Shown: positions 991 through 62,688 of the stretch, piece by piece | Layout of the letters: every line of letters starts with the position of its first letter | Position numbering within the stretch: position 1 is the first letter of the stretch | Assembly (NCBI GenBank): GCA_050246315.1 | Contig: JBFWWG010000012.1 | Location: 1 to 64,000 of the forward strand | DNA length: 64,000 bases | Source: Nitrospiraceae bacterium | Lineage (GTDB): Bacteria > Nitrospirota > Nitrospiria > Nitrospirales > Nitrospiraceae | Reading direction: 5' to 3' | Notes under the pieces: generated by a model | What the model saw: only the letters and a program-made list of their open reading frames with translations | Databases searched by the model: none | Told to the model about the DNA's origin: nothing | Position numbers and translations under genes: made by a program

Positions 991-3900
991 ATGATGTCGC
1001 TTCGGTTGATGAACGTCCTTCTGATTACCGATTCGGCTGAACAGACGACCCGCCTGACGCACGCTCTACGGCGACGCCACGAAGCCTGTCGTATCGAGGC
1101 CATCCGAACGTTGGAGGAAGGGATTGAGTGGGCGGGAAGATTGACATGGGATATCATCCTGCTGGATGCCGACCATGACGCGTTCTCTGGCATCTCCTGC
1201 ATCCACAGCCTGCGCGCGCAGGCTCCCCATGCAGGCCTTCTGCTTCATACTGAACGCTCCGTATTGAGTCCTTTGCAAGCCATACTGAATGGCGCCGACG
1301 CGGTGTTGTTCAGACAATCCACCAATTTTACGGACGAGGTCCTGTCGGCGGCTCAAGAAGTCCTCACCCAAGAGGAGCGACCCGCCACGCGCGGTCCGAC
1401 TCTCAGCCAGTACCTCCATCTCGTAGAGTCCACCGGGTTAGTTCTCTATGAATTGAACACCAGCGGAGCATTTACCTACGTCAGCCCCGGCTTTCATCAA
1501 TGGCTCGGATACGGGAACCAGGAACCCCTAGGCTGTCACTATAGTCAGTTCTTGGATCCGGACTCGCGGCGCTATGCGGAGCAGCGATTTAACGAGCGGC
1601 GCGCAGGTGCACGGGCCACTCGCCGCCTCGATCTCCATCTGTTGCCGAAGTTTCGCAAAGGGGTCCTTCGCACCCGCTTGCACGCCGTGATCAGCGCGAA
1701 GGGCATCTACGCACCCCACCACACATTTCTCGGAACACTGGGAGTCATTCATGCTCGGGTTTCACCTCACCCGGGCCAATCCACGATCGAGCTGCCGGTT
1801 GCACCGGAACCGACCGGACAACCTCCACAACCGGCTCCACCTTGGGAGTATGTCGAGACGTTGTGGCAGCAGATTCACCATTTTCTCGGCAAGCCCAGAG
1901 AAGCCTCATTGAGCGTGGAAGACAGGTCCTTCAGGACTCCTGTCTCCCAGTCGGGGCAAGCTGAAGCGATGAAACCGGAGCCTGTGTCCACCGCCGCGTC
2001 CCCCTCCTTATCCCCCTCCGTGCTTGAGACGGACCCAGTTCCCTCTACACACGAGGCTCAACAACCGGACACCCGCCTCACAACGCCTCGCCAGACAGAA
2101 CTCCCCGCGCTCCAATTACACACCGACATCCGATCCGAACATGAGACGGTCAGCGGGATCACAACCGCCTTGGACGTGGCCGGATTGCAGTTTCACCTCG
2201 CTACGCGGTCCACCAACGTTCCGACCGGCAAGGCCTCAATCCGTCTGGCATCCGACGTGATGTTCCTCCATCTGACCGGGACCATCATGGTGGATGCTGC
2301 TCGCCCGTCGGGGGGTCGTGTCCTGTTCGATCCCATCGAAGAAATCCAGCGAGCCGTATTGCTCTCATTCCTGGAAGCGCTACGAGAGGACCCGAAGGGC
2401 TTGAATGTGGAGATCGTGATCACCGGTGGGACCCACCTTACGTCACTCTCTGAACGCTCACCTCAAACTCCCTGGAAGATCGACCGCGGCGATCGCCGAC
2501 TGAACGTTCGGTTGCCATGCACATGTGCGGCCTTTCTCGCGACTCACAAGGAGACACACCGGAATGGGCCGATCGCTCTCAAGCTCCTGAACATCAGTTT
2601 GGGCGGATGCCGTTTCAGCAGTCCAATGCCGCTTCCCATCAGTCAGGGTTCGCTTCACCTCATCCTCGCACCATTCGACACCACTCCCGCTCATCCTATC
2701 GGAGCGAGTAGATCGGCGCGTGATGTGGTGTATGGATTGGAGAGTCCGGACACCCTGCCCATCACGATCATCTGGGAGCGCCAGCCGGCCACGGAGGCAA
2801 CCGCTCTCGATCGGCAGCCCCACTGGACCTACGGTGCACGATTGGCGCCGATTCCCGATCGGGCTTCCGGAGTCTTTTTCCGGCTGGTGAATCACCAGGC
2901 TCTCTTTGTCATGGAGGACCCCGAGCAACGAATCGCCCGACGTGTTCTGACCGATCTCTTATTCTGCATGAATCCTTACGATCGCAAGATCGCGCTGTAT
3001 CACGACCATGAACCAGGCAGCCGGGCGACTCTGGCTCCACTCGTGATCATCGTGCCCGGGTTCGCCAATCCTAAAGAGGGATATGCGGAACTGGCCTATG
3101 ACCTTGCCTCCCAGGGTATGCAGGTGCTTCGTTATGATTGCACTAACCATATCGGCGAGAGCGATGCCGCCGCCCCACATGCGATGCTGAGCGATATGCT
3201 CCTCGATTTCGTGACCGTGCTCGATTTTGCTGCTGAATTCTGGCCCAGTTGCCCGCTCTTCGTGATCGGCCATGGAATCGGTGGCGGCATCGCGGCTCGA
3301 GGTCTCAAGGACCATCCCCGGCTCGCCGGGCTTCTCCTGCTGCATGCGCCCTTGGACTTGAACCAGGAGCTGCATCGGCTCCAGCATACCGACAACGATC
3401 CGATGCAGATGCACGGACAGGACTTCGACTCGGGAAGCGTCTATGGCATCAACGTCATACCCGGGCCGTTCATCCGTGACGCTATCCTGTCTCGCTTGGC
3501 GGGCAGCCAGGATTTCCTCGACGATCTCGAGCGACTCCGAGCGCCGGTCGGCATTTTTGCACCACTTGAAGAGGCGGCGGCGCACCGGGACCTCCTCGAC
3601 CGTATGCGCGCGACTCTCGGCGAGGCCTGCCGCTTCGTGACCTATCTCGCGGAGCCGATCACCGGCGCGCCCAGACGACCGCTCCATCCGGACAACTGGT
3701 TCGACAGAATCGCACAGTTCTGCCTGGCGGAATCCTCATACGCACTGCGGGCGGACAGGCGGGTTCTCACACCGACGCAGGATCTCCAACGTGAAATAGG
3801 CCTCGAGCAGATGCGGGTCCGGTCTCTCCATCATCGTTCCTCCACCGAGCGGGTCCGTAACTGGACCAACTACGCCATCCACTCGCGCACGCTCCTCAAC

Positions 3901-16032: not shown

Positions 16033-17100
16033 TCAGCCGCCACGGGCATGCATTTCAAGGTGAGGATCTTCACGCAGACGGGAGACATCGATGAGTTGCA
16101 ATTCGCGGAGCCCTCCTTCTTCCAGGGCCTTTCGCTGTTCAGCGCCTCGGTCGCGACGCGCCTGCCACACGGAGGTGATGAGGGCTTCAATCGCTTCCGG
16201 TGCTCCGCCCCGACGCAACGGCACCCGCAAGTCGAATCCTTGCTTCGCATACAAGCAGAGATACCACATGCCGTCGGCGGTCAGCCGACTTCGGTCGCAG
16301 GTTGCGCAGAAGGGAACCGTGGTGGAGGCGATAATGCCAAAGATCGTCCCATCCGCCAAGGAAAAGCGCTGCGCCGGGGCAGACGAGGCTTCGTGGATCG
16401 GTTCGATTGGCCCGTATCGTTTCGTCAGAATCTGGAGGATCTCTGCCTGAGAGAGCACCTTGCTCATCGACCAATCGGTCGCCCCGCCCACGTCCATATA
16501 CTCGATGAACCGCACTTCGCCACTGACCGCCTTACCGTACTCGATCAAGGACACGACCTCGTCGTCATTGAAGCCCTTCATCGCGACGGTATCGATCTTC
16601 AGATTCGGGAAGCCGGTCCGATTCACGGCATCGATCCCCTCCAGCACCTGATGAAAGAGGTCGCGGCGGGTCAGTGCCCGGAATCGCTCGGGTCGTAGCG
16701 TGTCCAGACTGACGGTGACCCGATCCAAGCCGGCTTCGTAGAGCAGCTCCGCTTGCTCGGCCATCAGAATGCCGTTCGTCGTCAGCGCCAGCTCCTTGAT
16801 CTGGTGATTCTGCCGAAGCATACGGATCAGCAGCGGCAGGTTACGCCGCAGTAACGGCTCCCCGCCCGTGATCCGGACCTTGTCGACCCCCAACCCGGTA
16901 AAGGCCTTGGTGAGGAGCGCCATTTCCTCGAACGAAAGCACCGTCTCGCGCGGCAACCAGGCATACTCCTCCTCCGGCATGCAGTACTTACAGCGGAGAT
17001 TGCAGCGATCGGTCACCGAGAGCCGCAAACTGCGCAACGGCCGACCGAAGGTATCGTTCACGGTCGGCAGGTTCGCGTTGTGAGAAAACGCCTGTTCCAT
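16033..17100 (-). CDS. moaA: GTP 3',8-cyclase MoaA (radical SAM)
   Basis: LRLSVTDRCNLRCKYCMP, TGGEPLLR, FCATCDRSR...LC, C-terminal GG. Confidence 0.97.
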   Translation of the reverse strand: MEQAFSHNANLPTVNDTFGRPLRSLRLSVTDRCNLRCKYCMPEEEYAWLPRETVLSFEEMALLTKAFTGLGVDKVRITGGEPLLRRNLPLLIRMLRQNHQIKELALTTNGILMAEQAELLYEAGLDRVTVSLDTLRPERFRALTRRDLFHQVLEGIDAVNRTGFPNLKIDTVAMKGFNDDEVVSLIEYGKAVSGEVRFIEYMDVGGATDWSMSKVLSQAEILQILTKRYGPIEPIHEASSAPAQRFSLADGTIFGIIASTTVPFCATCDRSRLTADGMWYLCLYAKQGFDLRVPLRRGGAPEAIEALITSVWQARRDRGAEQRKALEEGGLRELQLIDVSRLREDPHLEMHARGG

Positions 17101-17119
17101 GTCAAACCTTGATCACAAG

Positions 17120-17390
17120 AGGATGATCAAAAAGGTCAGTCTTCTCATCCGCCCGACCCCGGCGTATTTGTCTCACCCGCCCACCCTCCGATTGCTCCGC
17201 AATCGACTTCCCGGGACGCGCCTTTCCACAGGCAACGCCGCAGCGAGTGAGGAGGTGAGGACGTACATACTACACTTCGTGTGAACCAGCGGCGCTTCGG
17301 GCGGAGCCCCCTCCGTATTGACGCCGCTGGAGAAGCCCACCAGTGAGTGTCGTGCCCCCGACAAAGCTGGCGGCCTTTTTTCATCATCCT
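17120..17390. mobile_element. MITE-like non-autonomous repeat between moaD-E and moaA
   Basis: Terminal inverted repeats AGGATGATCAAAAAGG...CCTTTTTTCATCATCCT; internal ACTTCGTGTGAACCAGCGGC shared with 38907-38926 and, inverted and near-identical, with ~63393-63412. Confidence 0.75.
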
Positions 17391-48828: not shown

Positions 48829-49103
48829 GCAGAGTCTCACCTCGTCTCATTCCATCACGCCGTCGTCGACCGCATCGAGGACCTGCCCCGCCTCGTGATC
48901 AACGCTGGCACACTCAACCGGATTCCGCACGGCGCCGAGATTTCCGCTGAACAATTCATCGACCTGCGCTGAAAGACTTGCTCCCTATTTCCCGAGCACG
49001 TCCGCATGAACAAACCAGTGCTCTTCCCCGATCCCTCGCGCCCCCTGTCTCCCTGTTTCACCGTCCGGCGCCGCTGCACAGCGGGCTACGCAGTTGCGCG
49101 CGT

Positions 49104-50752
49104 CCTTCAATGTAGATGGGGCATTGCTGCCGTGGAATCGCCGGCCCGGTCTGCCACCAGTTCGAGGCGGAGGAGCCGCTTCAATGGGGCCACGGCATTG
49201 CTGCCGTGGAATCTCGAACGCCTTGCACAGGGCGTGTTACCGCTCTAGGCGCTTCAATGGGGCCACGGCATTGCTGCCGTGGAATCCCTTTTTTCGTTTT
49301 CCCCAGCCAAGGCATGCGAAGATCTTGGCTTCAATGGGGCCACGGCATTGCTGCCGTGGAATCCTCAACGGCGGGACCGCCGGTGACGGTAAAAAGCTGC
49401 TGGCTTCAATGGGGCCACGGCATTGCTGCCGTGGAATCCCAACTTGGCAACTGCTGGCGTCGCGAGTGTGCTCACGCGCTTCAATGGGGCCACGGCATTG
49501 CTGCCGTGGAATCGGCCCGCCGCGATGGGAAGTGACGAACGGTTATTGCTGCTTCAATGGGGCCACGGCATTGCTGCCGTGGAATCCACGGCCTGGTCGA
49601 TGATGGGCGCGAGCGGCCTACTGGCTTCAATGGGGCCACGGCATTGCTGCCGTGGAATCTTCGGACCGTGAGTCCCTGAAGTCGTTGATTGACCTGCTTC
49701 AATGGGGCCACGGCATTGCTGCCGTGGAATCCGTGCTGGATACCCCTGACCTCGCCCGACTCGTCACCGCTTCAATGGGGCCACGGCATTGCTGCCGTGG
49801 AATCTGGCGGCGACGACCGAAGCGCCACCTCCGCGCATTCGGTAGCTTCAATGGGGCCACGGCATTGCTGCCGTGGAATCAGTATCAATGTGGAACTACC
49901 CGAAACATAAGCTCTCCGCTTCAATGGGGCCACGGCATTGCTGCCGTGGAATCGCGCAACGAATTGGCCGAAGAGATCGAGGAGCTAGAGCTTCAATGGG
50001 GCCACGGCATTGCTGCCGTGGAATCCGCGCAACGTCACCGCATCGTTCTTGCGGATATACGCGCTTCAATGGGGCCACGGCATTGCTGCCGTGGAATCCG
50101 AAGATATGGGCCAGTCAATTAAAGCAATGCGTTGGCTTCAATGGGGCCACGGCATTGCTGCCGTGGAATCCCGCACATTGACGGCGCGTGCGGGATGTCG
50201 AGTGTCGCTTCAATGGGGCCACGGCATTGCTGCCGTGGAATCGTTTTTGTCCATGCCATACGACACTCCTTCTCAACAGCTTCAATGGGGCCACGGCATT
50301 GCTGCCGTGGAATCTGGTTTCATGTGAACCATTCATCGACGCCTACGTAATATGCTTCAATGGGGCCACGGCATTGCTGCCGTGGAATCTCCGGTCAAGG
50401 TGATCGGCGCCCCCGTACTCCCGGCGCTTCAATGGGGCCACGGCATTGCTGCCGTGGAATCCGGATTCCGCGGCGCTGCTGTGGGTCGTGGTCTCTTCGC
50501 TTCAATGGGGCCACGGCATTGCTGCCGTGGAATCCTTGGCCGATGCGATGGAGATCCGCGGCGCCGAATCGGCTTCAATGGGGCCACGGCATTGCTGCCG
50601 TGGAATCAAACCCTTTCTCAAAGTCTTTGCCTAAGACTTTGCCGCTTCAATGGGGCCACGGCATTGCTGCCGTGGAATCACCCGCTCTTCACCGATGCGA
50701 CGGATTGGTATCTGTTGCTTCAATGGGGCCACGGCATTGCTGCCGTGGAATC
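49104..50752 (-). CRISPR. Type I-G CRISPR array: 23 repeats of 36 nt, 22 spacers of 36-41 nt
   Basis: 22 exact copies of GCTTCAATGGGGCCACGGCATTGCTGCCGTGGAATC (49178 to 50752) plus a degenerate copy at 49104-49139. The minus-strand repeat has a CCACGGCA/TGCCGTGG stem and an ATTGAAGC end. The degenerate copy is distal from cas2, which supports minus-strand orientation. Confidence 0.99.
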
Positions 50753-50971
50753 AGCTCACATACAAGTGAGCGGTCAGCCTGAGCTTCTGCCGCACATCGC
50801 GAGCGCTTGCCTCCTCTCGCCAACACCACCCTGTCATTGTGGTCCTTCACCTCCTTCCGTAGCCCGTTGTTGTTCGTTAAAGCCTGGTATGGCTCGTTGT
50901 TGTCCACGAGCGCTTCCCGGCCTCCGAGCCACCATTCGACCGCTCGCGTGGGATGCGGCTGCGATGCCCCC
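50753..50971 (-). promoter_or_regulatory. CRISPR leader
   Basis: Non-coding gap between the cas2 stop and the first perfect repeat; contains the direct repeat CGAGCGCTT (50800, 50907). Confidence 0.8.
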
Positions 50972-51262
50972 TCACACCACACGCGCCCGTCGTTCCTCCA
51001 CCTCCACCCGAAGGCCGAGTGCTTCGAACCGCTTAATCGGCCGGCTCTCCGTCGGACCCAGATCGATGATCAGGACTTGATCCTCGGTCTGGTGGATGAT
51101 CTCCGTCAGCGCGGCCTTCATGCGGACCACATCGATGTCGGGAAGATCGCATTGAAAGACCGAAAGCTGCAAATGGACGCCATAGCCCTTCATGGTCTTG
51201 AACACGCGCCGGAGTCGCTTCGGATCGGCAATATCATACGTGACCAGATAGCACCGGCGCAT
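50972..51262 (-). CDS. cas2: Cas2
   Basis: 96 aa; [16 protein letters not shown]...G.HLQLSVF.C...DQVLIIDLG. The true start is internal to the tracked ORF. Confidence 0.97.
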
Positions 51263-51267
51263 GGCAG

Positions 51268-52992
51268 TCACCGCGTAATGATGGCCGGCAGCTCCGGGAT
51301 CTCGCCCAAGAGGTAGCGTCCCAGCAGCCGCGCCTGTACTTCCAACACCCGCCGATAGCTGATCTGATAGCCGAACACCGGATGGGTCAACTCCTGTCCC
51401 ATTCGCCGCTCGTAGGTCTCGATTAACCGGCGGCGTCCCTCCGGCGTCAAGGTCACGGCCCCCATCCGCTCGATCCAGTCCGTCGTCCGGATCTCCCCGT
51501 TGTTGATGGCGGTCAACACAGCCGAATCCGCAATCAACGGCCGGAACTCTTCCATCATGTCGAGCGCCAAGGCCGGACGGCCGTAGCGCGGCTGGTGGTA
51601 GAACCCCAGATAAGGATCGAGTCCCACGCTCAGCAGCGTGACGGTCCACTCGCGCGCCAGCATCGAGTAGAGCAACGACAACATGGCGTTGACGGGATCG
51701 CGCGGCGGCCGGCGATTGCGTCCCTCAAAATCGAACCGCGCCCCCGGTTCGGCCTCCTTCAACATGCCGGCAAACTCTGAAAAGTACCGCCGGGCCGCCG
51801 TACCTTCCGTACCGAGTAGCGACTCCACCGATTCCGCTGAGCCGGCCTGCCTGTGATCATATTTCAACTCCTGAATCACCGTCTCCGGCGCAGCCCGGTG
51901 ATTGCGCCGGAGCAGCGTGCGGCAATTGGCAATCTTGGCCTGGACGAAGCGTCGCGCCAGTTGAAGACACCGTTCACGGTCCGCCGCGACCGCGTACTGC
52001 CGACGCCGCAGTTCCACATGTTTGTGCAGGAGGCCCGTCGTCATGCCGTAGAACCAGCCACCGCTCGAACAGTAAACCAGCGGAATTTCGCGTTTGCAGA
52101 GTTCCTGAATCGCTTGTGTACTGACTTGCACGGCTCCGTACAGGACCACTTGAGAGGTTTCCACCAGCCGCGCCTCGCCGATCACCTCGTCGTGATCTTT
52201 GATTCTGAGGCAATCCCCGTCCTTGGCCAACTTGGCGCCGGGGGTCTGCACATGCAGCGGCAGGGCATCATCGTTCGTGGGAACCAGTTTTCTGAGCGCC
52301 GGGGTTTCCCCTTCATGCGGCCCGCGCAGCCAGTCGATTTCGTCCGGCAAACAGAGCCCCACCAGCGAACAACGGGGACACTTGGGACTATCCACCAAGG
52401 GCGGCGGGGCTACGGATAAGGTCGTCATCGCCCGCATCTCCGCCAAGAGGTCCAGCGTTCGGGCAACGAAGGCCTCGTCAAACGGCACCTCGACCCGCTC
52501 GCGCGAACCGACGAAATAAAGCACACCCCGGTCGCAGCTATAGCCCTGTTCCCGCAGCAACAACCCCTGCACACAGAGCTGCACCCGCTCCGGCTCCCAC
52601 GCGCCCTGCGCCGTATGCGGGCGCTTGCCCCGCTTGTAATCCACCGGCACGACTGCGCGGGCCCCTTCCTCTTGTCCCGAGGAGATCGCCTCACCTTCCA
52701 CCAGGTCGATCTTCGCCGTCACCCCGAGCCGCTCCGAGGATAGCCAGACCGACCGCTGATGGATGGCCGTCTCAGCCGCCTCGTCCTCCGCCTGCTTCGC
52801 TTTTCGCGCCGGCGCCTGGTCCACGCGCCGATGATGGAACCGGCCCTCAACCGTCTCGGCGTTGTCGGCGAACTCCCCGTCCACCCATTCGAAGTAGGCC
52901 AGACGCGGACAATAGGTGAATTCGTTCACCATCCGGGCGGGGAGCAACGGAATGTCGCTCCCCGAGGATGGCCCTAGGGATTCGTTCTCCAT
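51268..52992 (-). CDS. cas4/cas1: Cas4-Cas1 fusion
   Basis: Cas4 part: YCPR, KIDLVE, PVDYKRG, QLC.Q, KCPRCSL..LC. Cas1 part: [33 protein letters not shown]. Confidence 0.97.
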
Positions 52993-53175
52993 ACTCCCTC
53001 TATCGGCGGGAGCGATGGAAATATTCAGATGTCAAAGAACAAAGGCGACCGAATGAGCCCCACCCGGTACCGGTCAGCCCCGGCCCCACAGGCTCGGGCA
53101 TGGCAACTCATGCCTCAACCTCATGCTCTACCTGCTCACGCGCCAGATGCCGAGGGTATCGCCCCCGACGATGTC

Positions 53176-53373
53176 TTACTTCACCCCAAGCTCACCCTTC
53201 GCACGGCTGAGGGGAACGGAGCGTTTCCGGCCTTCCGTCTTCTTCGCCTTGCGGAGTTGCAAAAGGTCTTCCATGTCCTCCAACCGTTCTTTTAAGGACA
53301 CGAACTCTTCATACGGCAGCACGGCAAACTGTTTTTTCCCGTCTTTGATCAGAATCTCAGGATGTAAGGTCAA
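53176..53373 (-). CDS. Phd/YefM-like antitoxin
   Basis: 65 aa; I..KDGKKQFAVLPYEEF..L.E.LED.ED...L..AK; directly downstream of relE. Confidence 0.75.
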   Translation of the reverse strand: MTLHPEILIKDGKKQFAVLPYEEFVSLKERLEDMEDLLQLRKAKKTEGRKRSVPLSRAKGELGVK

Positions 53374-53393
53374 GATCGACTTCTTCTCAAGCC

Positions 53394-53641
53394 TTAACGA
53401 TAGGCCTTATCTCGTGACAACACGCGAAAGATTATCACCCGGTGCCTGCAACCTCAAAAAGCACACGGTAGTCCCCCACCCGCAATCGGTATTCCGGCGT
53501 GAAGTGAGTGAGGCGTTTCACATCGCCGGCAAGGTCGATCTCCAGCGCCTCCACCTTCGCGACGACCCTTTCGCACTCACGCAAGGTCAGGGTTTTCAGA
53601 TCCTTGATCGCCCTTGGCTTGAATTCAATGTTGTATTGCAT
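53394..53641 (-). pseudogene. relE: RelE/ParE toxin with a frameshift near the C-terminus
   Basis: Y.IEFKPRAIKDL...GDVKRL...YRLRVGDYRVLFEV stops at 53435, while the family C-terminus RVIIFRVLSRDKAYR* continues in another frame to 53394. Confidence 0.85.
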
Positions 53642-53737
53642 TCATGCTCCAACCGTCCCGGACGAATAGGGAAGCGGAAACCGTACGTGTCATAGCTTGC
53701 GCCTCACACGCACAGGTTACGATCTTCACCTGAGCCC

Positions 53738-53821
53738 TTACGCGCTCCGCTCGCCCCCACGACCATCCACCGGCATAAATTGCCCGAGGCCGAAGTGGCA
53801 GCCGTAGCCGAGGGAGCAAGG
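53738..53821 (-). pseudogene. csb2: 3' remnant of a second csb2 (Cas5/6)
   Basis: Translates as PCSLGYGCHFGLGQFMPVDGRGGERSA*, a Cas6-type Gly-rich C-terminal loop; no start codon; begins 6 nt after the cas8g stop. Confidence 0.75.
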
Positions 53822-53826
53822 TATAT

Positions 53827-54789
53827 TCACACTGGTATTCCCATTGTGAAGTTGCGAAACCTGCCTTGGGTAATTCGCTCGCAGCGATAGATTTCCTTGA
53901 TCCCCATCGCCTCGAGCTGGCGTCTATTAGGGCACTCTGCCCGTAGTTCATCTAATGCCAACAGAGAACGTACAACGTCTACACTGACCTCACCCTCCCA
54001 GATAGGCCAGGTCCAGAACACACCGATATCTTTGCGTCTGATAAAGCCGGTGGTTTCAAGTCGATTCCCAATCGGTGCTGTCGGCAATAGCGCTATACCT
54101 TCGATCGCGAGCCGGTTGGCACCCCAGACGCTACCTTGAACCTTACGCGCAGGGTCTCCACTAGGCTCACTCCAGCGCAGTGCACGACGTACATCGTCAC
54201 GAGGATCCCAACGCATAGTGTGTTTCTCCATAGGATCATCATAACGCCAGGGTTCCATCAGCGCTTTGCACAAATGTTCTGATTGGCTGTCCTGAGCCAA
54301 TTGCCGCATGGTTCCAAGAAAGTGCTGGTGCCCAGACCCACTCATAGTGCGCAATGCTGTATCCGCAACAATCTTGGGGTCGGTCATGTTCCTTATGGCT
54401 TCACTGCCAAATGCCGCCAGAAAATCAGCAAGGCGCCTTTCGCTGTTGGTGCCCGTCTTCTGCGCTTTTACGGCTTCCTTGCGAAAGTCCTCAATCTTTA
54501 TCGTGAGGTTGTCAGCCAGCTCAAAAGCTTCATGCTTCGGCTCTCGTCTCAGTTCTTGCATCAGTTGGGCAAAAAGATCGATCTTCTCATCAAAATCCAC
54601 GGTCAGCTCTGGCCGCCAACCACCCTCGTCTCGTTTCCAGGTCATGCGACAGCGATAGCATCGCCACGCCAGCGTTGCCGTTCTCAATGTTCCTATCGCG
54701 GCGAGAAAGGCGAGCGGATTGCTGCCATCCAGTCCTTTCAATAACCAACGGTTCTTCATACGCCACCTTGAGGGACGGTTTAATTTCAT
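53827..54789 (-). CDS. cas8g: Type I-G large subunit Cas8g (Csb3/Cas8u-like)
   Basis: L.GLDGSNPLAFLAAIG, SG.G.Q.F, WRYDD....RWDP, GANRLA.EG..L.P, WTWPIW; ATGA-coupled to cas3. Confidence 0.75.
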   Translation of the reverse strand: MKLNRPSRWRMKNRWLLKGLDGSNPLAFLAAIGTLRTATLAWRCYRCRMTWKRDEGGWRPELTVDFDEKIDLFAQLMQELRREPKHEAFELADNLTIKIEDFRKEAVKAQKTGTNSERRLADFLAAFGSEAIRNMTDPKIVADTALRTMSGSGHQHFLGTMRQLAQDSQSEHLCKALMEPWRYDDPMEKHTMRWDPRDDVRRALRWSEPSGDPARKVQGSVWGANRLAIEGIALLPTAPIGNRLETTGFIRRKDIGVFWTWPIWEGEVSVDVVRSLLALDELRAECPNRRQLEAMGIKEIYRCERITQGRFRNFTMGIPV

Positions 54790-57700
54790 TGTTCAGCTTC
54801 ACTGCGGCGATGGTCTGCCAGCCGCATGATCGCTTCAAGCCATGCGAGTCCCCACCAGCCGTATCGTCGCGTGAGCGCCCAAAATCGCTCAGCCACTCCA
54901 GAATCCAGAAATTCAAGACCCGTCGCGCTGGAATGGATCAACTGGCGACCTTGAAACTTCACGGCCACATCCATTGGGATGTCATCAATCACGACGGGCG
55001 CAAAAGGCCTGCAATAACCATGATGACTGCCAACCAAATGCAGCACCAACATCGGAAGATACTCATCATCTCGTGGCAACAGGTCAGCGGCTTGTTCGAG
55101 AAAACGCACAGAAAGCAATTCGTGTCGGCCGCCGTTAGGGTAGCCGGCACGCCGCCTGGCCTTTTCGCTGGCATGTCTTCCTTGAGGCATATCCGAGGAC
55201 TTTGCGAGCAAATCACTCCCTACCCAAGGATTGCCGCCCCTGAGCCACGCCTGAAAACGCGGGTCGGCCTTGCCGAGATCGTGCGCCCGAGCCGCCAACT
55301 CCACTGCGTTTACCAACGGCTTTGATAAACCGCACCCTTCCGCAAAATGACGAGCAAACTCCGCTACTCCGTCGAGATGCGCCGCAAGCCCTACGCGACA
55401 AGTACCAGAAGCAGTGGCATCGTCCTCATCCGAAAAAGCATCGGTCTCGCCTGGGCGTGCGGAGAGCCTCTTGCTACCCCGTACCACCAACCCACCCATT
55501 GGGTGCAACATAAGACCATGTGCAAGCTTCTTATCACTAGCGAGGCTTAATGCGATCTCCCTGAGCCATTCTGGAGCAACCGCATCGCCTCCCATATTCG
55601 AAAATGCTGCTCTAAGATCATCAGCCAATAACTCCGGATCTGCCTCAAGACGATTCGCTGCCTCCGCAGCAAGGCGACGTAGTCGTTCCGTGGATGATGT
55701 TTCAGGGAAGATGGACATGACCTCCGGGTGTAACCGAAGCATTGCCTTTGCTCGCGCAATGCGATGCGCGCGATCGCCCCAATCCAACACGGGTTGTCCG
55801 TTCGGTCCCGCGGGTAGACCACCAAGAACATCCCAGCCACCCGCCTCTGCGGGAATGACCACGACATCACCGGGGCAAATTTCTTGTGGATCGGAGATGA
55901 CCCGTGAGTCCTTCCGTCCGCGCCAACGAACGACACAAGAAGTGCTTAACGCCGTGTCAGACTCCGCGACGAAATCTCTGCTCGCTCCTTCCACATCGGT
56001 ATCGTTGCTACCGGCAGCTCTGTCTCCCATGAGCCAGTTGCGTAAAGTGACGATCGTAACAGGCAGGCACTCCATCGCGGCGGGAGGGCAAAGAGCGAGT
56101 GTTTCGAGCCAGTCTTCCTCGCCACCAACACGAAGATCGGCCCGCCAGCACACCTGCACATCAGCCGAGGCTCGTTCCGGGCCGTGCAAGAAGACAGCGA
56201 CGTCCGGTGTAGGTGTTGGCTCCGGGGCCGTCTGCGCCCAGCAGTCAACATGGGAAGGAAGTATCACCGGGGCATGCGCAGCGGGAGCGACAAGTTTCGC
56301 CAATTTCGCTCCGCTCGGCAGCCTCCCGGCTAATGCCATGATGCCCATGCTAAGCACCTTAGCTTTCCCCCCTTGCTCGTTCAGCCATTTCCATGTCTCG
56401 GTAAGTGCCGGTCCATACACCGGATCATCTTCACTCTTCTCGGTTTGATCGGCCCGGATAAGAATCGCAGCCTTGGCGCCACGAGGATGACCGGCCTCGT
56501 CCCTTCCATCGATTGTTCGCCCCATTCGGTTGAGTCGCCCAAAGCGCTGTCGCAGCGCATCAAGACTGGCACACTCGGTCACCAATACGTCGAAATCCAA
56601 ATTGGCGCCAACTTCCAACGTCTGGGTGGTAACGACGAACAGAGGACCAGCAAGCTGTCGCTCTTTTGAATGTTCAGCGGAGAGAGCTTCCAGCCGTGCT
56701 GCTACCGTATCGTCCTTGTCAATCGCTCGCATCCGTCCAGTGAGCAACACCGCTGCCTGACCGTAATTCTTCGTGAGCAACCTGTGGATATGGCGTGCGG
56801 TGGCTACGCGGTTAGCGAATATCACCGCGGCAACCGCCCGTCCTGCAACCAGGTCCTCGGCTTTTATTGCTAACGCAGCAGCAAGCATTTCCTCAGCGTT
56901 CGCGCGGAGTTCGACAAGCTGCTTGCGCAGGCGTCTTTGTGCATTGCTGCCCTTGGCCTCTTTCAGTTGTTTGAGCGTATCTTTGACTCCCCAAGCAAGT
57001 TTCTTATCTTTTTCAGTTGGCTGTATAAGCTCAGTGGGCTTCTCCGCAAGTTGTCTGTCACCGAGCCGATGACCAGCGGTCTTCGGCTCCTCGGAGTTGT
57101 CCCTGAACACATCCGACAGCCCATCCGGCGGCGTGGCGCTCATGATGACGATATGAAATGGCGCCTTCGGTACGGCATCGCCCCAAAGGCGATACTTTTT
57201 TACTGCCTGCAAGGTCTCCAGAAAGGGTTGAGCACAATGGGCTTCGTCGAGCAACACCAACGCATCGTTACCGGCCATGCCTGCTTGTATGGGCCACGCA
57301 CGGTGGGAGCGACCGTAGGCCCGGAACAGCAGGCGCGAGCCCAGTTGATCCACTGTGCTGGCAATCACTGCCGGTTGGATAGGTGAATGTGCCCATGCAT
57401 CGGAACGATACATGCCGCCGCGTAACTGAAAACAAGCTAAGGGTTCTTCGCCACCCGAAAGTCGGCGCAGTTGGTTGGCTACGCTGTACAGAATGCCCTT
57501 GGTTGCTCCCCGCAACCTGTCGGCGATCTTGCGGGCGCGCTCATAGGCTTCATCAACGATCACACGGCGATCCACGACAAAAAAGATGCGCCGCGGAGCG
57601 GTCAACGATTGATCCGGTGCCAACATGTCCGCCTGTGCCGCCAAAGCGAAGACGGCGATGTCGATGCAGACCGTCTTGCCAGAGGCGGTTGGCAGTGCGA

Positions 57701-57836
57701 TTGCGTCAGGCCAAGGCCTCGATGTATTCGACAATACCCTTTCAGCCAGGTCTCTCTGCCACTGAAACGGAACATGTCCATGTCCCCAAAGCGCTGTGAA
57801 GAAGTCGCTGAAGTCTGCGGCATTCAATTCAGGCAT
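54786..57836 (-). CDS. cas3: Type I-G Cas3 helicase with C-terminal HD nuclease
   Basis: PF.WQ, LPTASGKT, VVDRR, STVDQ.GSRLLFR, LDEAH, MSATP, TQTLEVGANLD, QRFGRLNR, then HLDGV...HDLGKAD...RHE...SHHG...LADHR. Confidence 0.95.
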   Translation of the reverse strand: MPELNAADFSDFFTALWGHGHVPFQWQRDLAERVLSNTSRPWPDAIALPTASGKTVCIDIAVFALAAQADMLAPDQSLTAPRRIFFVVDRRVIVDEAYERARKIADRLRGATKGILYSVANQLRRLSGGEEPLACFQLRGGMYRSDAWAHSPIQPAVIASTVDQLGSRLLFRAYGRSHRAWPIQAGMAGNDALVLLDEAHCAQPFLETLQAVKKYRLWGDAVPKAPFHIVIMSATPPDGLSDVFRDNSEEPKTAGHRLGDRQLAEKPTELIQPTEKDKKLAWGVKDTLKQLKEAKGSNAQRRLRKQLVELRANAEEMLAAALAIKAEDLVAGRAVAAVIFANRVATARHIHRLLTKNYGQAAVLLTGRMRAIDKDDTVAARLEALSAEHSKERQLAGPLFVVTTQTLEVGANLDFDVLVTECASLDALRQRFGRLNRMGRTIDGRDEAGHPRGAKAAILIRADQTEKSEDDPVYGPALTETWKWLNEQGGKAKVLSMGIMALAGRLPSGAKLAKLVAPAAHAPVILPSHVDCWAQTAPEPTPTPDVAVFLHGPERASADVQVCWRADLRVGGEEDWLETLALCPPAAMECLPVTIVTLRNWLMGDRAAGSNDTDVEGASRDFVAESDTALSTSCVVRWRGRKDSRVISDPQEICPGDVVVIPAEAGGWDVLGGLPAGPNGQPVLDWGDRAHRIARAKAMLRLHPEVMSIFPETSSTERLRRLAAEAANRLEADPELLADDLRAAFSNMGGDAVAPEWLREIALSLASDKKLAHGLMLHPMGGLVVRGSKRLSARPGETDAFSDEDDATASGTCRVGLAAHLDGVAEFARHFAEGCGLSKPLVNAVELAARAHDLGKADPRFQAWLRGGNPWVGSDLLAKSSDMPQGRHASEKARRRAGYPNGGRHELLSVRFLEQAADLLPRDDEYLPMLVLHLVGSHHGYCRPFAPVVIDDIPMDVAVKFQGRQLIHSSATGLEFLDSGVAERFWALTRRYGWWGLAWLEAIMRLADHRRSEAEQ

Positions 57837-59427
57837 GATCTCTGTCTCCCTGCGAAAGGGGCCGGCAGAGACCATAGCCACGATACCGCCCGGCGCCCAC
57901 CAACACAGGACCCTCAACGTCTTCTCCGAAATCGATCACAGCATGAGCATGGGACATACGCCCACCATCCTTCTTGCGGATCAAATAAGGGAACTCGTTA
58001 CTTCTCGGAACACCCTCAAACATTGATACCGGATGCAATAAGACTTCCTGTGGACGAGGCAGACCAATACGTTTGCATGCGTCCTTGACGCTCTCCGCCG
58101 TATGCTCCCATTTATCTTTGCCATTGAAATGACGATCCAACACCACTGGCGTGACACTGGCCCATACGCGCGCCGGGCCTGTCCATGTCTCTTGCCTCAG
58201 GCTCCACGGTGGTGATTCTCGGGTATCCAGCTCCACACCACACTCGAACCATTGTCCATCGAAAAGACGGTGGCGCTTGGGGAGTTCGTATTCATCACGT
58301 AACCAATGTCCCAGAACACGTGCTGGTTCGTCCTGTGAAACCGCTCGCGGCAATGTCAGAGCTACACCCAGCAGCCGACCATCGGCGTGTTCCCTTCCGA
58401 CAAATGGTAGAGGCACCAAAGCCAAGTGGGGTTTCTCGCTGCGTCCACCACCAGATGCATGACCGCACAGCCATTCCGGCAGAGGCTGTGAAGCGCCGGC
58501 CATCAATGCTCCACGCAACGCTTCGGTAAGCCTGAGAGTAGCCGGAAGCGACAATCGCGGACCAGAAAGACTCAACACCACCAGGCGAGGATCGAAGATG
58601 CTGCCGCGAATCGTTTTCCCAGGCTCTATAAATGGTTTGTTGTACCCCGTGTAATGCCACGAATTCGGTCGCAACCGATCGATGATGCCATGGAGATAGT
58701 TCTCCCGCCTTTTCTTGAGGTCGTTTCTCCGCTTACCATGGGCCGCTTGCTCCAGCGCCCATAAATCGTCAACTACCGCGATGTGTGCCTCACGCCCACA
58801 CGTTCTGATTAAATAGTCGAGCCGCCCCGGCCCAAAGATGCGCAAGCGATGGCGGGTCACACCCTCGCGCTCGACAAGAGTGGGTGCTGGTGGGGAGTCG
58901 GTCAACCACATCTGCACCAGTGAAGCGGGATGACCGATGGAGACCACCTTCCCGCAAAGGCGGGCAAGCGGTTCGCGGTAAATTTCTGGAATGTCGTCGT
59001 TCCATATCAGATGAACGACTGGGTCATGAGGGATGGCGACTGGGAAAGAACGCTCCTGCCTGGGACGGAACTCTACAGCCACTGTCAGACCGGCCTCCTT
59101 CAAATCCTTGAGGGAAGGTTGCGGATCAGCAAGCACTGAAGCGAGTTTCTTCGATCCGGCCAGTTCCGAGTCGTTCGCTGGCACGTAACTAGTAACCACC
59201 TCTCGAAACTCAGCCTCCGAAGCTGCAATCCCCGGTGGGTTAAGTCGTTCCAACCAGCGAAGGATTTCTCCTTCGGCGGCGTCCTGGTCTGTTTCAAACC
59301 ACGCCGCCGTAAGCGCCATAAATACCCGATCCGGATGGGGTGGCCATTCGGCGCGCTCTTTCTTTGGTCCATCTGCCGCCGCCATCACCCACCCATTCAA
59401 AAAGTGGATGCCGAGACCAAACATCAT
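57829..59427 (-). CDS. csb2: Csb2 (Cas5/Cas6 fusion)
   Basis: EWPPHPDR.F.AL.A, L.WLE.L..P, W.SVTP.VL, GPVLVGAGRYRGYGLCRP. Confidence 0.93.
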   Translation of the reverse strand: MMFGLGIHFLNGWVMAAADGPKKERAEWPPHPDRVFMALTAAWFETDQDAAEGEILRWLERLNPPGIAASEAEFREVVTSYVPANDSELAGSKKLASVLADPQPSLKDLKEAGLTVAVEFRPRQERSFPVAIPHDPVVHLIWNDDIPEIYREPLARLCGKVVSIGHPASLVQMWLTDSPPAPTLVEREGVTRHRLRIFGPGRLDYLIRTCGREAHIAVVDDLWALEQAAHGKRRNDLKKRRENYLHGIIDRLRPNSWHYTGYNKPFIEPGKTIRGSIFDPRLVVLSLSGPRLSLPATLRLTEALRGALMAGASQPLPEWLCGHASGGGRSEKPHLALVPLPFVGREHADGRLLGVALTLPRAVSQDEPARVLGHWLRDEYELPKRHRLFDGQWFECGVELDTRESPPWSLRQETWTGPARVWASVTPVVLDRHFNGKDKWEHTAESVKDACKRIGLPRPQEVLLHPVSMFEGVPRSNEFPYLIRKKDGGRMSHAHAVIDFGEDVEGPVLVGAGRYRGYGLCRPLSQGDRDHA

Positions 59428-60737
59428 TCGTCTCCTTCTTCACCCTCTGCAGCAATTTCGTGACTCCGGCGTACCAACTGGAGCAGGTCGTCGGAGGGAG
59501 CAAGTTGGATGACATTCCTTTCCCACGGCAATCCCAACTGTACTGCCTCGTCCACAGCCTCATTGAAGAGCACTACTGCATTATCGGCTGTAAGATCGAA
59601 CGGTGTCTCCCGGCCGGGTCCGCTCAGAAGATTCCACTCAAATGGTCCATCAGGAACAAGTTGGCAACGGGATCGTAGATCCGAACCTTCCTCGCGCGCC
59701 AGCGTGGCTGCACAGATGCCAAGAGCGGCCAGCACCGTGCGTGCCGCCTTGTCTACCATGGTCTGTTCTTCAGCATTCTTGCCTTGGAGAGGAAATCGCA
59801 GTCGTCGCAGTGCTGTCAGTGATAGCACAGTGGTCTGGCTAGCTTTGTCGATTGTGAAACCACCTCTGATGCGTGGTTCTCCATTTTTCTCCCGAATAAT
59901 GTTGTTTCTGTTGTCTTTAGCATAGGCAAAATCTGGCGTTACACCGCCAAGATTGGCTTCAGATGGCTTGCCCTCCTTGCCAATCTTCAGTCTCTTCCCA
60001 TCCCTTTCACGAGCATCGGACTCGTTCAGAGTCCAATGGGGAAGAGAGTCAGATTTTTTCTGGCGCTGAAGGAGCGGCCCCGCACTTCTCAGAATATTCA
60101 GGTGATCGACCTTGCCACCGGTCGTGATCCCCGGCTGAGCATTGATGCCTACAATCTCCGATACGAGTGCCCGTTGGAACTTCGCGCCTAGACCACCGCG
60201 CGGTCCTGCAGAGTCCCATAGCCCAAACAGTAACGCTGTTGGGCAGAGACCAAAGAGCCCGGTTGCATTTCGAAGATCAGCCACATCCAAAACTCTGCCT
60301 TTACTCGACCTGCGAAACAGCACCGCCTGGCCAGCTTCCTCATGGAGGCTGTCGCGAAACAGGGCGTCTGCAACACGGTGAGGAGCGTCAAGACTCGTTA
60401 CCTTGATAGTCTTCGGCACTCCCCTCACTTCGAACTCGAACTTCACCTGCACTATCGGAAGTGAATGGGGTCCGAAACGTTTCGCTTCCCATGCATCCAG
60501 CAGCGCCGACTCCATTCGGTTGGCCTGGGATTGCACCGAATCCAACAGTACGCAGTCCACAACCTTGCTGTCCTTCATCACTCGTTTCTCGGTCGCATAC
60601 TTTCCACCTTCGTAAGTCGGCGGGAATACCTTGTCCCCAGGCCCACCGGCGGGCTGATACTCGGTTACGCATCGCAACGCTGCGGCTGAACCACCCACTG
60701 CTTGTTTCACTTTCTCCAATGTCAGCGTCTCACTCAT
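59424..60737 (-). CDS. csb1: Csb1 (Cas7g)
   Basis: PAGG...KVFPPTY, LDSVQSQANRME, PHR.ADA, PTALLFG.WDS, LS...LRRLRF, DLRSRC.L; AAGGAGG RBS. Confidence 0.95.
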   Translation of the reverse strand: MSETLTLEKVKQAVGGSAAALRCVTEYQPAGGPGDKVFPPTYEGGKYATEKRVMKDSKVVDCVLLDSVQSQANRMESALLDAWEAKRFGPHSLPIVQVKFEFEVRGVPKTIKVTSLDAPHRVADALFRDSLHEEAGQAVLFRRSSKGRVLDVADLRNATGLFGLCPTALLFGLWDSAGPRGGLGAKFQRALVSEIVGINAQPGITTGGKVDHLNILRSAGPLLQRQKKSDSLPHWTLNESDARERDGKRLKIGKEGKPSEANLGGVTPDFAYAKDNRNNIIREKNGEPRIRGGFTIDKASQTTVLSLTALRRLRFPLQGKNAEEQTMVDKAARTVLAALGICAATLAREEGSDLRSRCQLVPDGPFEWNLLSGPGRETPFDLTADNAVVLFNEAVDEAVQLGLPWERNVIQLAPSDDLLQLVRRSHEIAAEGEEGDE

Positions 60738-60790
60738 GGACAGCTCCTCCTTTGTTTACACTCTTCTTCTCAATCCAGAATTTTCCTGAA

Positions 60791-60952
60791 CTACACCCAT
60801 CCCAGCACCGCCATCGCGGTTTTGCCAAGACCTGTCGGCACATCCACCAACGATGGTAAGATTCGCTCGCAGGCGAAGCGGACCTGGAATGGATACGGGA
60901 CATATCCCGTCGCCTGCTTGAACCATTCAGAGAATTGTCGCTCCTGACTCAT
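60791..60952 (-). pseudogene. cas3: 5' remnant of a second cas3
   Basis: AGGGGG RBS then MSQERQFSEWFKQATGYVPYPFQVRFACERILPSLVDVPTGLGKTAMAVLGWV* (53 aa): Q-motif plus Walker A, then a stop. Confidence 0.85.
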
Positions 60953-61440
60953 CTGGCTTTCCCCCTGTCACTCTTTACTCTCTCCTGTTCCGACTCCCAC
61001 TCCCCATCCAGCGGCGTATACGGTATCCGTTGTAAAGGACCTCTCACGAACTGAGCACGATCGGGACATTCCGTAGACTGAATTCCACATGGAGGATATT
61101 TCAATGGGTGTCTCTCAAATTCTGCAAAGGACCAAATTCTGATTCCTCGACCACTCCGACGCATACTCGGGTTCAAAGCCGGGGGCAAGGTGCCGTTGAT
61201 CGAGGAGGCGAGTTAACGTCCCGAGCAGGCATACGCCATTTTCCTGAATGATTCAATACGCAGAGGATGGACAAACGGTCCTATTGGACCCGCCTCCAAT
61301 CAGCACCGGTGGCTCGTTCGGCGAGTGGCCTGGTCTTCGCCTGCTCCTCCTGAGATGCCGACCTGCCGGCCGGCGGCGTTGACGGAAGGCCTGGATGAGA
61401 CCGGCTTTGTCTTTCCCTGCCGGTGCTGTACAATCCGCGC

Positions 61441-61650
61441 ATGGCTTTCGATCCGGACAATCCGCCCATCTGGCTGCGCAAGCTCCACGTGACCGCGGTG
61501 CAGATCAACCCGACGGACTATCCGACATCGCCCATCGATGGCCTCCTGGCCGTCTGTCGTCTTTCCGATGCCCAGTACCATTGGATAAGGGCGATGCGCC
61601 GCGCCACCACCGAAGCCGATGGCGCCGCATCGCCCTCTTCTCACAGCTAG
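61441..61650 (+). CDS. Small hypothetical protein, probable partner of the downstream nucleotidyltransferase
   Basis: 69 aa; TACAAT -10 box 6 nt before the ATG (possibly leaderless); 8 nt gap to the next gene. Confidence 0.55.
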   Translation: MAFDPDNPPIWLRKLHVTAVQINPTDYPTSPIDGLLAVCRLSDAQYHWIRAMRRATTEADGAASPSSHS

Positions 61651-62319: not shown

Positions 62320-62688
62320 TCACTTATTCCTCCAACTGTTTCCATCCAACGGCGCAAACGGCACATTGGGGTTGAATTGATTCGCCGGATTCAGCGGGTT
62401 ATCCGGACGAAACTGGTTGACGGGATTGAACGGATTGTTGGGATTGTATTGATTGATCGGGTTTGCGGGATTCCCCGGATCGTAGCGATTGACGGGATTG
62501 AAGGGGTTGCTGGGCGCGTACGCGTTCGCGGGATTGAGCGGATTGTCAGGCCGATACTGATTGGCGGGATTGAAGATATTGTAGTCTCGCTCGTACTTCT
62601 CGTCGAAGCCTTGGTCGGCTGCCCCTCCCGTGGTCCAAGTCGGCACCATAAGCACCATGATAGTTGCCGCTAACGCAAGCGCACGCAT
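62320..62688 (-). CDS. Secreted Asn/Pro 12-aa tandem-repeat protein
   Basis: AAGGAGG RBS, signal peptide, about six repeats of NP(A/V/I)Nx(Y/F)xPxNP(L/F/A). Confidence 0.85.
   Translation of the reverse strand: MRALALAATIMVLMVPTWTTGGAADQGFDEKYERDYNIFNPANQYRPDNPLNPANAYAPSNPFNPVNRYDPGNPANPINQYNPNNPFNPVNQFRPDNPLNPANQFNPNVPFAPLDGNSWRNK

Follow-up and report, generated by a model that had tools for sequence, protein, structure and literature searches.

Probable in-place replacement of a type I-G CRISPR effector module, bounded by gene remnants, in a Nitrospiraceae bacterium

Shuffling between adaptation modules and effector modules in CRISPR-Cas systems is textbook knowledge. Alternative sets of cas genes at a single site, which Touchon and Rocha reportedly described in Escherichia and Salmonella in 2010, are thought to be exchanged through recombination in the flanks. 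These alternatives are said to be of another subtype and to comprise whole cas operons, unlike the case described here, where an effector block appears to have been swapped against a retained adaptation module with scars left inside genes. The locus in question, an intact type I-G CRISPR-Cas locus from the effector block through to the array, lies on the minus strand of a 64,000-nt stretch of a Nitrospiraceae genome (the window; contig JBFWWG010000012.1, positions 1–64,000). We consider it very probable that a resident Csx17-type effector module was replaced in place by a csb1-first module. The first-pass annotation of the window had proposed such a replacement of a cas3-first module, with the old upstream region, adaptation genes and array kept, and scars, homology breaks, composition, synteny and a Cas4/1 tree all point the same way. 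Genes were named from NCBIfam profile matches to the window proteins, with Pfam additionally, and curated cut-offs are given where quoted. Handles denote genomes (G; G000 is the genome of the window), loci (L; L073 is G240, L031 is G016, L034 and L056 are G044, L035 is G025), public runs (X) and one contig (C29).

The Geobacter-type I-G locus GSU0051–GSU0054 has a gene order that we take to be cas3-first. At the Nitrospira site, the modules termed here variant C share with this type Cas3g, Cas8g2 (TIGR04106, ‘cas8c_GSU0052’), Csb1 and Csb2, followed by cas4/1 and cas2. The window module differs in that it begins with csb1 and carries a Cas3-extension gene, and no window protein matches the Cas8g1 (Csx17, TIGR04113) or Cas8g2 (TIGR04106) large subunit. 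The replaced module also differs, as it would have been the Csx17 (Cas8g1) variant and not the GSU0052 one. The first-pass annotation had placed a csx17-type cas8g in the Geobacter-type order. Its view that a cas3-first module with a csb2 end was replaced stands, but Cas8g2 (GSU0052) and Csx17 (Cas8g1) are different variants, both present at the site in Nitrospira.

The closest described process is in-situ shuffling of CRISPR effector modules, a known trend of which, judged against the available part of the source, the Nitrospira swap is a scar-bounded and recurrent variant (Makarova et al. 2025, PMC12669027). Compared with that part, the block exchanged in Nitrospira is of class 1 and comprises several effector genes, a single site alternates between three architectures of the same subtype, and remnants fix the breakpoints to a few bases, with older remnants stacked. 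The same part of the paper makes no mention of gene-internal scars, on which its supplementary discussion may bear. In the open-access papers searched, neither Nitrospira I-G loci nor gene-internal remnants marking swaps were found to be described, and the matches for Nitrospira CRISPR-Cas were general genome papers (such as PMC5767232). The case is thus one of class 1 effector blocks exchanged at a single site, among three architectures of the same subtype and between conserved remnants.

The first remnant (the 5′ scar, 60791–60952, minus strand) is an open reading frame (ORF) of 53 codons that starts with ATG and corresponds to the N-terminus, Walker-A P-loop included, of a Csx17-type (variant A) Cas3g. 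Residues 6–53 match positions 1–51 of the 854-position Cas3g model TIGR02621 (E 3.7e-14). The fragment is 64–77% identical to full-length Cas3g N-termini of other Nitrospira, the P-loop included, so that its initial reading as 53 codons of a different Cas3 is borne out. A purine-rich stretch precedes the ATG, a stop follows codon 53, and homology to the A-type genes ceases 4–12 nt past a pair of GW codons. Across all six reading frames of the 4.39-Mb assembly, the motif PTG.GKTA[MI]A occurs a single time, at this scar. Some cas3 sequences carry a GC-rich, repeat-like insert, translating ...SPSP(L/R)..GEG.GEG..., in frame between FAC.P.L and LVDVPTG. It is present in the 5′ scar of L034/L056, in the upstream copies of L031 and in the full cas3 of L035, L051 and L069; in apparently intact cas3g it places 15–40 extra residues directly before the P-loop.

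The second remnant (the 3′ scar, 53738–53821, minus strand) consists of the final ∼16 codons of an A-type csb2 together with a tail, as identified by tblastn to the Csb2 C-termini of relatives. It matches the extreme C-terminus of the Csb2 preceding cas4/1 with 58–75% identity over 16–25 residues in 7 of 7 loci of relatives, as expected from the earlier description of 27 codons of a different Csb2 C-terminus. Its 30-nt core (CAC TTC GGC CTC GGG CAA TTT ATG CCG GTG) lies at 53768–53797. Translations of the relatives' Csb2 C-termini read ...LGY[AG]CHFGLGQFV.V, and a typical end is ALGYACHFGLGQFVAV, compared to SLGYGCHFGLGQFMPV in the 3′ scar of the window. The 27 residues gave no family match in NCBIfam or Pfam at E up to 0.1, because they are too short for such models. 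HFGLGQF was found once in the six-frame translation of the 4.39-Mb assembly, at the 3′ scar. Both fragments thus match Cas3 and Csb2 of csx17-type loci, as had been predicted; the module of the relatives is Cas3g-(AbiEii-like nucleotidyltransferase)-Cas8g1/Csx17-Csb1-Csb2 (TIGR04113 E 1.1e-106).

Neither full-length A-type genes nor a second full-length I-G cas3 were found elsewhere in the genome of the window. The only other Csb2 match in this genome is a truncated C-terminus (TIGR02165 positions 258–492) on contig C29 (3943 nt; ∼2215–3069, minus strand), where it abuts an insertion sequence (IS)-like DDE transposase ORF. The contig is richer in G+C (0.629), and the piece may be the remains of another I-G locus or contamination. 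It was considered as a candidate for the missing module and rejected, its sequence being unlike that of the 3′ scar.

The site has a constant order: WYL regulator, NP-repeat protein, effector module, toxin-antitoxin pair, cas4/1, cas2 and array. Relatives keep the flanks, with a WYL/WCX regulator and a secreted-looking NP-repeat protein upstream and cas4/1, cas2 and array downstream. Three modules occupy the place between. Variant A consists of Cas3g (∼840 residues), often an AbiEii-like nucleotidyltransferase (a weak Pfam match), Cas8g1/Csx17 (TIGR04113), Csb1 and Csb2. Variant C consists of Cas3g, Cas8g2 (TIGR04106, the GSU0052 family), Csb1 and Csb2, while variant B is the csb1-first block csb1-csb2-cas3g-Cas3-extension, as in the window. 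The two fragments in the window are the two ends of variant A, and the intact cas3-first module that the first-pass annotation expected between the same flanks in relatives exists as these A-type loci. The nucleotidyltransferase gene of many A modules encodes a conserved 169-residue protein (E ∼7e-4) and lies between cas3g and cas8g1 (L036 10281–10790, with equivalents in L032, L034, L043, L069 and L070); its last codons survive in some scars.

G001, a single contig from the same genus, carries variant C. DNA homology between the window and G001 extends down to 60793, is absent over the block and resumes at 53801, within the 3′ fragment. Nucleotide identity is 87% for parE-phd and 78% for cas4/1-cas2, and Cas4/1 is 88% identical by tblastn (90% over 565 aligned tree columns). 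Csb1, Csb2 and Cas3 of G001 are 24–34% identical to those of the window and are ordered differently. Close Cas4/1, distant and differently ordered effectors and common flanks are the signature of in-situ shuffling. The Cas4/1 tree of 17 loci conflicts with module type, in keeping with the incongruence that had been anticipated. The window Cas4/1 is nearest to those of the C-type G001 (90%) and the A-type L041. On this tree, the module labels need three changes for B (forced by the starred branches), three for C and five for A. Their clustering does not exceed that of shuffled labels, 36 of 200 shuffles giving values as low.

Incongruent trees alone are silent on which module moved. The adaptation side could have done so, a native B locus having acquired a foreign cas4/1-cas2-array with flanks, fragments included. 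We regard this as extremely unlikely. A-type scars lie on both sides of the effector block, and both flanks (WYL, NP-repeat and non-coding stretch; parE-phd and cas4/1) are syntenic with A- and C-type Nitrospira loci. The G+C content at third codon positions (GC3) deviates from the genome in the block and not in the flanks, and in genus g35 the native B loci come with a Cas4/1 of their own that is just 49–54% identical.

Composition agrees with replacement of the effector block. The block (53822–60790) has a G+C content of 0.560, compared to 0.610 and 0.591 for the flanks, and is in the lowest 3.3% of 4198 genome windows of equal length. GC3 is 0.54–0.57 for the four block genes, compared to 0.67 and 0.75 for the scars, 0.78 for cas4/1 and 0.73 for cas2; the impression by eye of an AT-richer insert thus corresponds to GC3 steps at both junctions. 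The 5′ junction is a short spacer (60738–60790, minus strand) that carries the csb1 ribosome-binding site and is homologous in L054, L051 and G240. Blastn runs through it (window 60849–60616 against L054 and L051), and over the initial ∼120 nt of csb1 the window and L054 share 74% identity, compared to 48% for the whole proteins.

The block does not have the attributes of a transposon or IS element (inverted repeats at the termini, a duplicated target site, a transposase). Beyond chance matches of 14–15 nt, neither direct nor inverted repeats flank it, chance repeats of 14–22 nt all lie away from its ends, and inspection of the ORFs in 53000–61500 identified no transposase-like ORF; the locus has no integrase. 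These results uphold the earlier remark that the junctions show no target-site duplication or transposase. The ends of the B block are two different sequences (cas3 5′ and csb2 3′), unlike att-type sites.

Since the genome is a 30-contig assembly and alternative alleles co-occur in the same samples, the junctions might be chimeras of two co-occurring strains. The probability of this is next to negligible. The single contig of G240 has the same scar-B-scar order over 7178 nt, as do genomes and metagenome-assembled genomes (MAGs) of other species. Separate contigs of X15, from another study, bridge each junction with 0 differences; the concern about assembly chimeras raised with the first-pass annotation is thereby answered. 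An X1 contig spans 53300–61328 without difference, and this run may be the source sample. Other public contigs, 97–99.8% identical in the flank, diverge at 53798 (X3, X15, X16), 60793 (X16) and 61223 (X3, X15), and contigs ending in an A-type csb2 join the same flank at 53812 and 53814. X16 is an RNA library, in which the B block is covered only by short, low-depth contigs.

The effector swap is neither recent nor unique: other species carry these scars around their B and C modules, with older scars outside newer ones. In G240, which belongs to another genus, the scar-B-scar unit is collinear with window 60925–53763 in a single alignment (80.2% identity over 7178 nt). The event therefore predates the split, or the unit was passed on as a block. 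The fragment-B-fragment order is also found in G016, G044, G219, G081 and G271. A census of B loci through NF049934, which is independent of the scars, identified B loci in 8 of 371 Nitrospiraceae species genomes. All six with upstream sequence (two further loci are on contigs that are too short) have a cas3A scar within 400 nt of csb1, and the same six have the csb2A core behind the last gene. In G081, a 5′ fragment of cas8g1 additionally separates the cas3A fragment from csb1. Sampled more widely across the phylum, B was present in 9 of 401 genomes. None of the three B loci of genus g35 has either scar, and their Cas4/1 is their own (49–54% identical). G556, a member of another family, carries two fragments that are cas3A-like but of its own sequence type; one ends just past the P-loop, the other near codon 80. 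The Deltaproteobacteria MAG L052 and G556 hint at cas3 5′ and csb2 3′ remnants in I-G loci beyond Nitrospiraceae.

The corresponding census of C loci through TIGR04106 identified them in 11 of the 371 genomes. A short ORF encoding an A-type N-terminus lies upstream of the resident cas3 in 8 of 10 assessable C loci (at 30–140 nt in seven); in G229 there are two such fragments, a nearer one at ∼70 nt and a stronger one at ∼1 kb upstream. No A-type N-terminal remnant was detected in the C loci of G101 and G117, and that of G020 is cut by the contig end. In the A loci mapped, no remnants of B or C were seen. All remnants are A-type, and therefore the direction is from A to B and from A to C.

Some loci contain several remnants. 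G016 has four cas3A 5′ fragments ∼1 kb apart, one of which is fused to the last nucleotidyltransferase codons, followed by the first ∼55 codons of cas8g1. In G031 and G025, the A module is complete and has a cas3A fragment upstream. At the csb2 end, L042, L048, L073 and L076 have a csb2 end or scar, an MNT-HEPN pair and a second copy of the csb2 core (35–45 nt). Most simply, each new module would have been placed within scars that already existed, and the succession of the scars would then be that of the events. The MNT-HEPN (nucleotidyltransferase plus HEPN) pair occupies 0.8–0.9 kb between the effector module and cas4/1, flanked by the 35–45-nt direct repeats of the core (L042 19099–19930; L048 17918–18880; L073, minus strand; L076 8259–9220). 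Between the stacked cas3 scars of L031 (∼16450–17300, minus strand) is an ORF pair resembling, by eye, a DUF4258-like toxin and a DUF2283-like antitoxin.

We propose that module A (cas3g-[nucleotidyltransferase]-cas8g1-csb1-csb2) would have been removed from about codon 55–60 of cas3 to ∼16 codons before the end of csb2, and that a complete csb1-csb2-cas3g-Cas3-extension module (B) of different composition was put in its place. The old upstream region, the adaptation genes, the array and hence the spacer memory would have been retained. The first A-to-B and A-to-C transitions may have been illegitimate deletion-insertion events. Subsequently, homologous recombination in the conserved flanks and the ends of the modules would have carried scar-module-scar units, or the modules inside them, from one Nitrospira lineage to another. 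As stretches of the homology arms, the scars would have been rewritten from functional A alleles, and thus look selectively conserved. A likely driver would be diversifying pressure on the interference complexes by phage anti-CRISPRs, with spacer memory kept.

The B block may be expressed from the old upstream region, which probably corresponds to a conserved non-coding stretch upstream of the 5′ scar (61070–61285, minus strand; 76–84% identity to G001 and 79% to G240) and could contain a promoter or regulator site. Within it, a ∼70-nt stretch (61215–61285) has two copies in G001 (L033 3745–3811 and 6089–6148). Because of these two copies, and since the alternative contigs of X3 and X15 diverge at 61223, it may be a small repeat element marking another recombination edge.

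The CRISPR array (49102–50756, minus strand; TRF consensus) has a 36-nt repeat. It is 100% identical over 35–38 nt to that of the C-type locus of G001, and 97% identical to that of G044. The same 36-nt repeat appears to be used by all three variants. The spacer memory would then be usable by the new complex, because the repeat is identical in B-type and C-type loci.

Several observations weigh against a simple replacement, or limit what can be concluded from it. No donor of the B block was found. The number and order of events are not fixed: in the Csb1 tree, the scar-less native B locus of G541 nests among scar-flanked ones, a placement that fits either repeated capture or B-for-B replacement inside existing scars. 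The block's low GC3 may in part reflect the genes as such, and the loci collected by the A-type Cas3 N-terminus (the 64–77% identity set) are biased toward having it. The alternative allele was not recovered from the reads. Its 30-nt loose ends match nothing in the collected loci or the own genome with up to 5 mismatches, and contig depth is not readable as allele frequency; a 19-nt scan of metagenome contigs for this allele returned one unrelated contig with DNA ligase and ROK kinase genes. Replacement as such does not explain why breakpoints cluster just past the segment coding for Walker-A and just ahead of that coding for HFGLGQF.

A further difficulty is that the scars are too well kept for neutral relics older than the species split. 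Between the window and G240, the ratio of nonsynonymous to synonymous substitution rates (dN/dS) of the 5′ scar is ∼0.10, with 14, 10 and 28 differences at the first, second and third codon positions, and other scar pairs have a dN/dS of 0.04–0.14. HFGLG[Q/L]F is encoded by the 3′ core in 16 of 16 stand-alone copies, most of which have no in-frame start. Frameshifted or truncated scars are also present (L071, L051, G252 and G271). For comparison, the neighbouring B genes other than cas3 have a dN/dS of 0.12–0.16 at a dS of ∼0.85–1.04 between the window and G240, and variation in the 3′ core is mostly at third positions, as in 15 full genes. Replacement thus needs an added assumption, either recombinational renewal or some function in cis. 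In renewal, frequent recombination with functional A alleles, with crossovers inside the scars, would re-copy selected sequence. This fits the read data, because the contigs diverge exactly at the scar edges.

Alternatively, the fragments may be A-derived but by now functional elements under selection. The P-loop peptide (53–62 residues), or its translation, could aid expression of the new module, and the csb2 core could be a cis site for the downstream toxin-antitoxin pair and cas4/1. We consider this unlikely, and equally so its corollary that breakpoints cluster since the useless remainder decays up to a functional edge. The purifying-type pattern in the scars would be accounted for, as would the core, intact in all 16 copies. 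About 10 of 15 5′ scars keep an open frame, several with ATG and ribosome-binding site. G001 and L071, both of the C lineage, do not differ over the 33 nt from GGCCAT to CAGTTC, whereas 7 of the 21 nt directly upstream differ. However, selection on a peptide cannot explain the 3′ core, because it usually has no start codon yet varies at third positions as real genes do. The 27 sequences of this core gave 0 consensus RNA pairs (RNAalifold), and no promoter or sigma-70 consensus was detected on the minus strand of 60600–61500. Two terminator-like hits in 53000–54000 are away from the scar, and their number is within shuffle expectation. A retained function is weakened by these three features of the core and its surroundings: no start codon, no RNA structure and no promoter or terminator consensus. 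Some scars are frameshifted, and two C loci and three native B loci have intact genes without scars. As causes of the conservation, renewal and retained function both stand, and we make no choice between them.

The breakpoints themselves are clustered. At the 5′ side, they lie 4–29 nt past the GW codons in the window, G240, L054/L051, G016, G044, L050 and the second copy of G016, and ∼10 nt past them, with a 1-nt insertion, in the upstream copy of L042/L047. A second class lies 87–95 nt past the GW codons (G001, L053, L055). The TIGR04106 set has the same two classes, with the profile match ending at 51–62 (G118, G277, G252, G229) or 82–83 (G168, G084, G223). All 16 stand-alone copies of the 3′ remnant begin 0–21 nt ahead of the CAC that opens HFGLGQF. 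The junction partners are csb1 of B, cas3 of C, the 3′ end of the nucleotidyltransferase gene, an unrelated gene, HEPN genes and the alternative allele in the reads. As these partners differ, not all junctions stem from one event. The 5′ junction of the window is homologous and common to L054 and L051, and we give no probability for the clustering because related loci share junctions by descent.

Such clustering could reflect site-specific cassette exchange, not driven by homology, in which the csb2 core, and perhaps the G-rich stretch past Walker-A, are sites for a putative recombinase or for staggered integration of the Cas1-Cas2 type. Distinct partners from at least four classes (L042, L048/L076, L073 and the alternative read allele) meet the 3′ core 0–3 nt from CAC, and 5′ breakpoints are 4–29 nt past the W codon in most junction classes. 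The direct repeats of the core around the MNT-HEPN pair in four loci (∼35–45 nt) are near the length of the 36-nt CRISPR repeat. Against this, the ends of the B and C blocks differ with no duplicated target, the locus encodes no integrase or transposase, and the direct-repeat length is not sharp. One 5′ breakpoint class is at about codon 80, and one junction is inside cas8g1. Stacked scars account equally well for the duplicated core. As a CRISPR pseudo-repeat, the core was rejected, its local alignment score of 16 being reached in 289 of 5000 shuffles. The octamer TGTGGCGG, common to both breakpoint regions, was likewise rejected as a Chi-like signal, as it is not over-represented in the genome (302 observed, 286 expected; z 0.9; rank 10351 of 59095). 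Overall, site-specific exchange is quite improbable.

A tentative extension of the replacement model, which we hold to be possible if doubtful, is that the cas3 5′ end and the 30-nt csb2 core are portable homology arms or recombination sites, which make I-G modules and adjacent toxin-antitoxin pairs exchangeable cassettes. If so, Nitrospira populations could change among interference machineries of three architectures while keeping one spacer memory. The arms would be copied anew from functional alleles at every exchange and so stay conserved, and those stacked to either side would preserve the chronology of earlier exchanges.

Conflicting trees are the usual grounds on which an exchange between adaptation and effector modules is inferred. 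The Nitrospira remnants give breakpoints to a few bases, as well as a direction, from the Csx17-type to two other I-G variants, and they recur across species and within sampled populations. They make testable the replacement of a class 1 effector operon without loss of the array, the processing and use of the same repeat and spacers by I-G complexes with Csb2 ∼25–35% identical, and the use of short conserved coding segments as recombination anchors. Three I-G effector variants with one repeat are also a natural set that is useful for comparative biochemistry of a little-studied subtype.

The B block of the window consists of four genes on the minus strand. The first, csb1 (cas7g; 59424–60737), matches TIGR02570 (E 3.4e-15, 56.4 bits, cut-off 38) and PF09617 and has a GC3 of 0.541. 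It is followed by csb2, encoding a Cas5/Cas6-like protein (57829–59427; TIGR02165 E 4.8e-87, 293 bits, cut-off 45; GC3 0.563), and by the cas3g helicase-nuclease gene (54786–57917; TIGR02621 E 7e-214, 713 bits, cut-off 400, full model 1–854). The listed cas3g ORF has a TTG start that overlaps csb2, and the true start is probably near 57836, because the model match begins at residue 35. The last gene (53827–54789) adjoins cas3g and encodes 320 residues. It had been annotated as cas8g at first, a name that NCBIfam does not give it; NCBIfam assigns its product to the ‘type I-G Cas3-extension family’ (NF049934 E 6.2e-72, 242.7 bits, cut-off 65), a marker of the csb1-first variant. Cas3g, Csb1/Cas7g, Csb2, Cas3-extension, a Cas4/Cas1 fusion, Cas2 and an adjacent array together identify the locus as csb1-first type I-G.

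The retained genes downstream are also on the minus strand. The cas4/cas1 fusion of the adaptation module (51268–52992) matches NF049935 (E 3.8e-242, 804.6 bits, cut-off 560; GC3 0.779), and cas2 (50972–51268) matches TIGR01573 and PF09827. Between the effector block and cas4/1 are a parE-like toxin gene (53435–53641; PF05016 E 3e-5), 86% identical to the G001 copy in the same place, and a phd/relB-like antitoxin gene (53176–53373; PF02604 E 7e-4, a weak match below the cut-off), 91% identical to its G001 copy. The order, with the parE-like ORF preceding the phd-like one, and the length, with a ParE match of 68 residues to an 89-position model, are unusual. The pair is probably functional, because it is 86–91% conserved with G001.

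On the upstream side, window 62320–62688 (minus strand) encodes a 122-residue protein with a signal-like N-terminus and many N-P-x-N repeats (NPxNxY/F), for which there was no family match. The gene for this NP-repeat protein lies directly upstream of the I-G locus across Nitrospira, with two copies in some loci.

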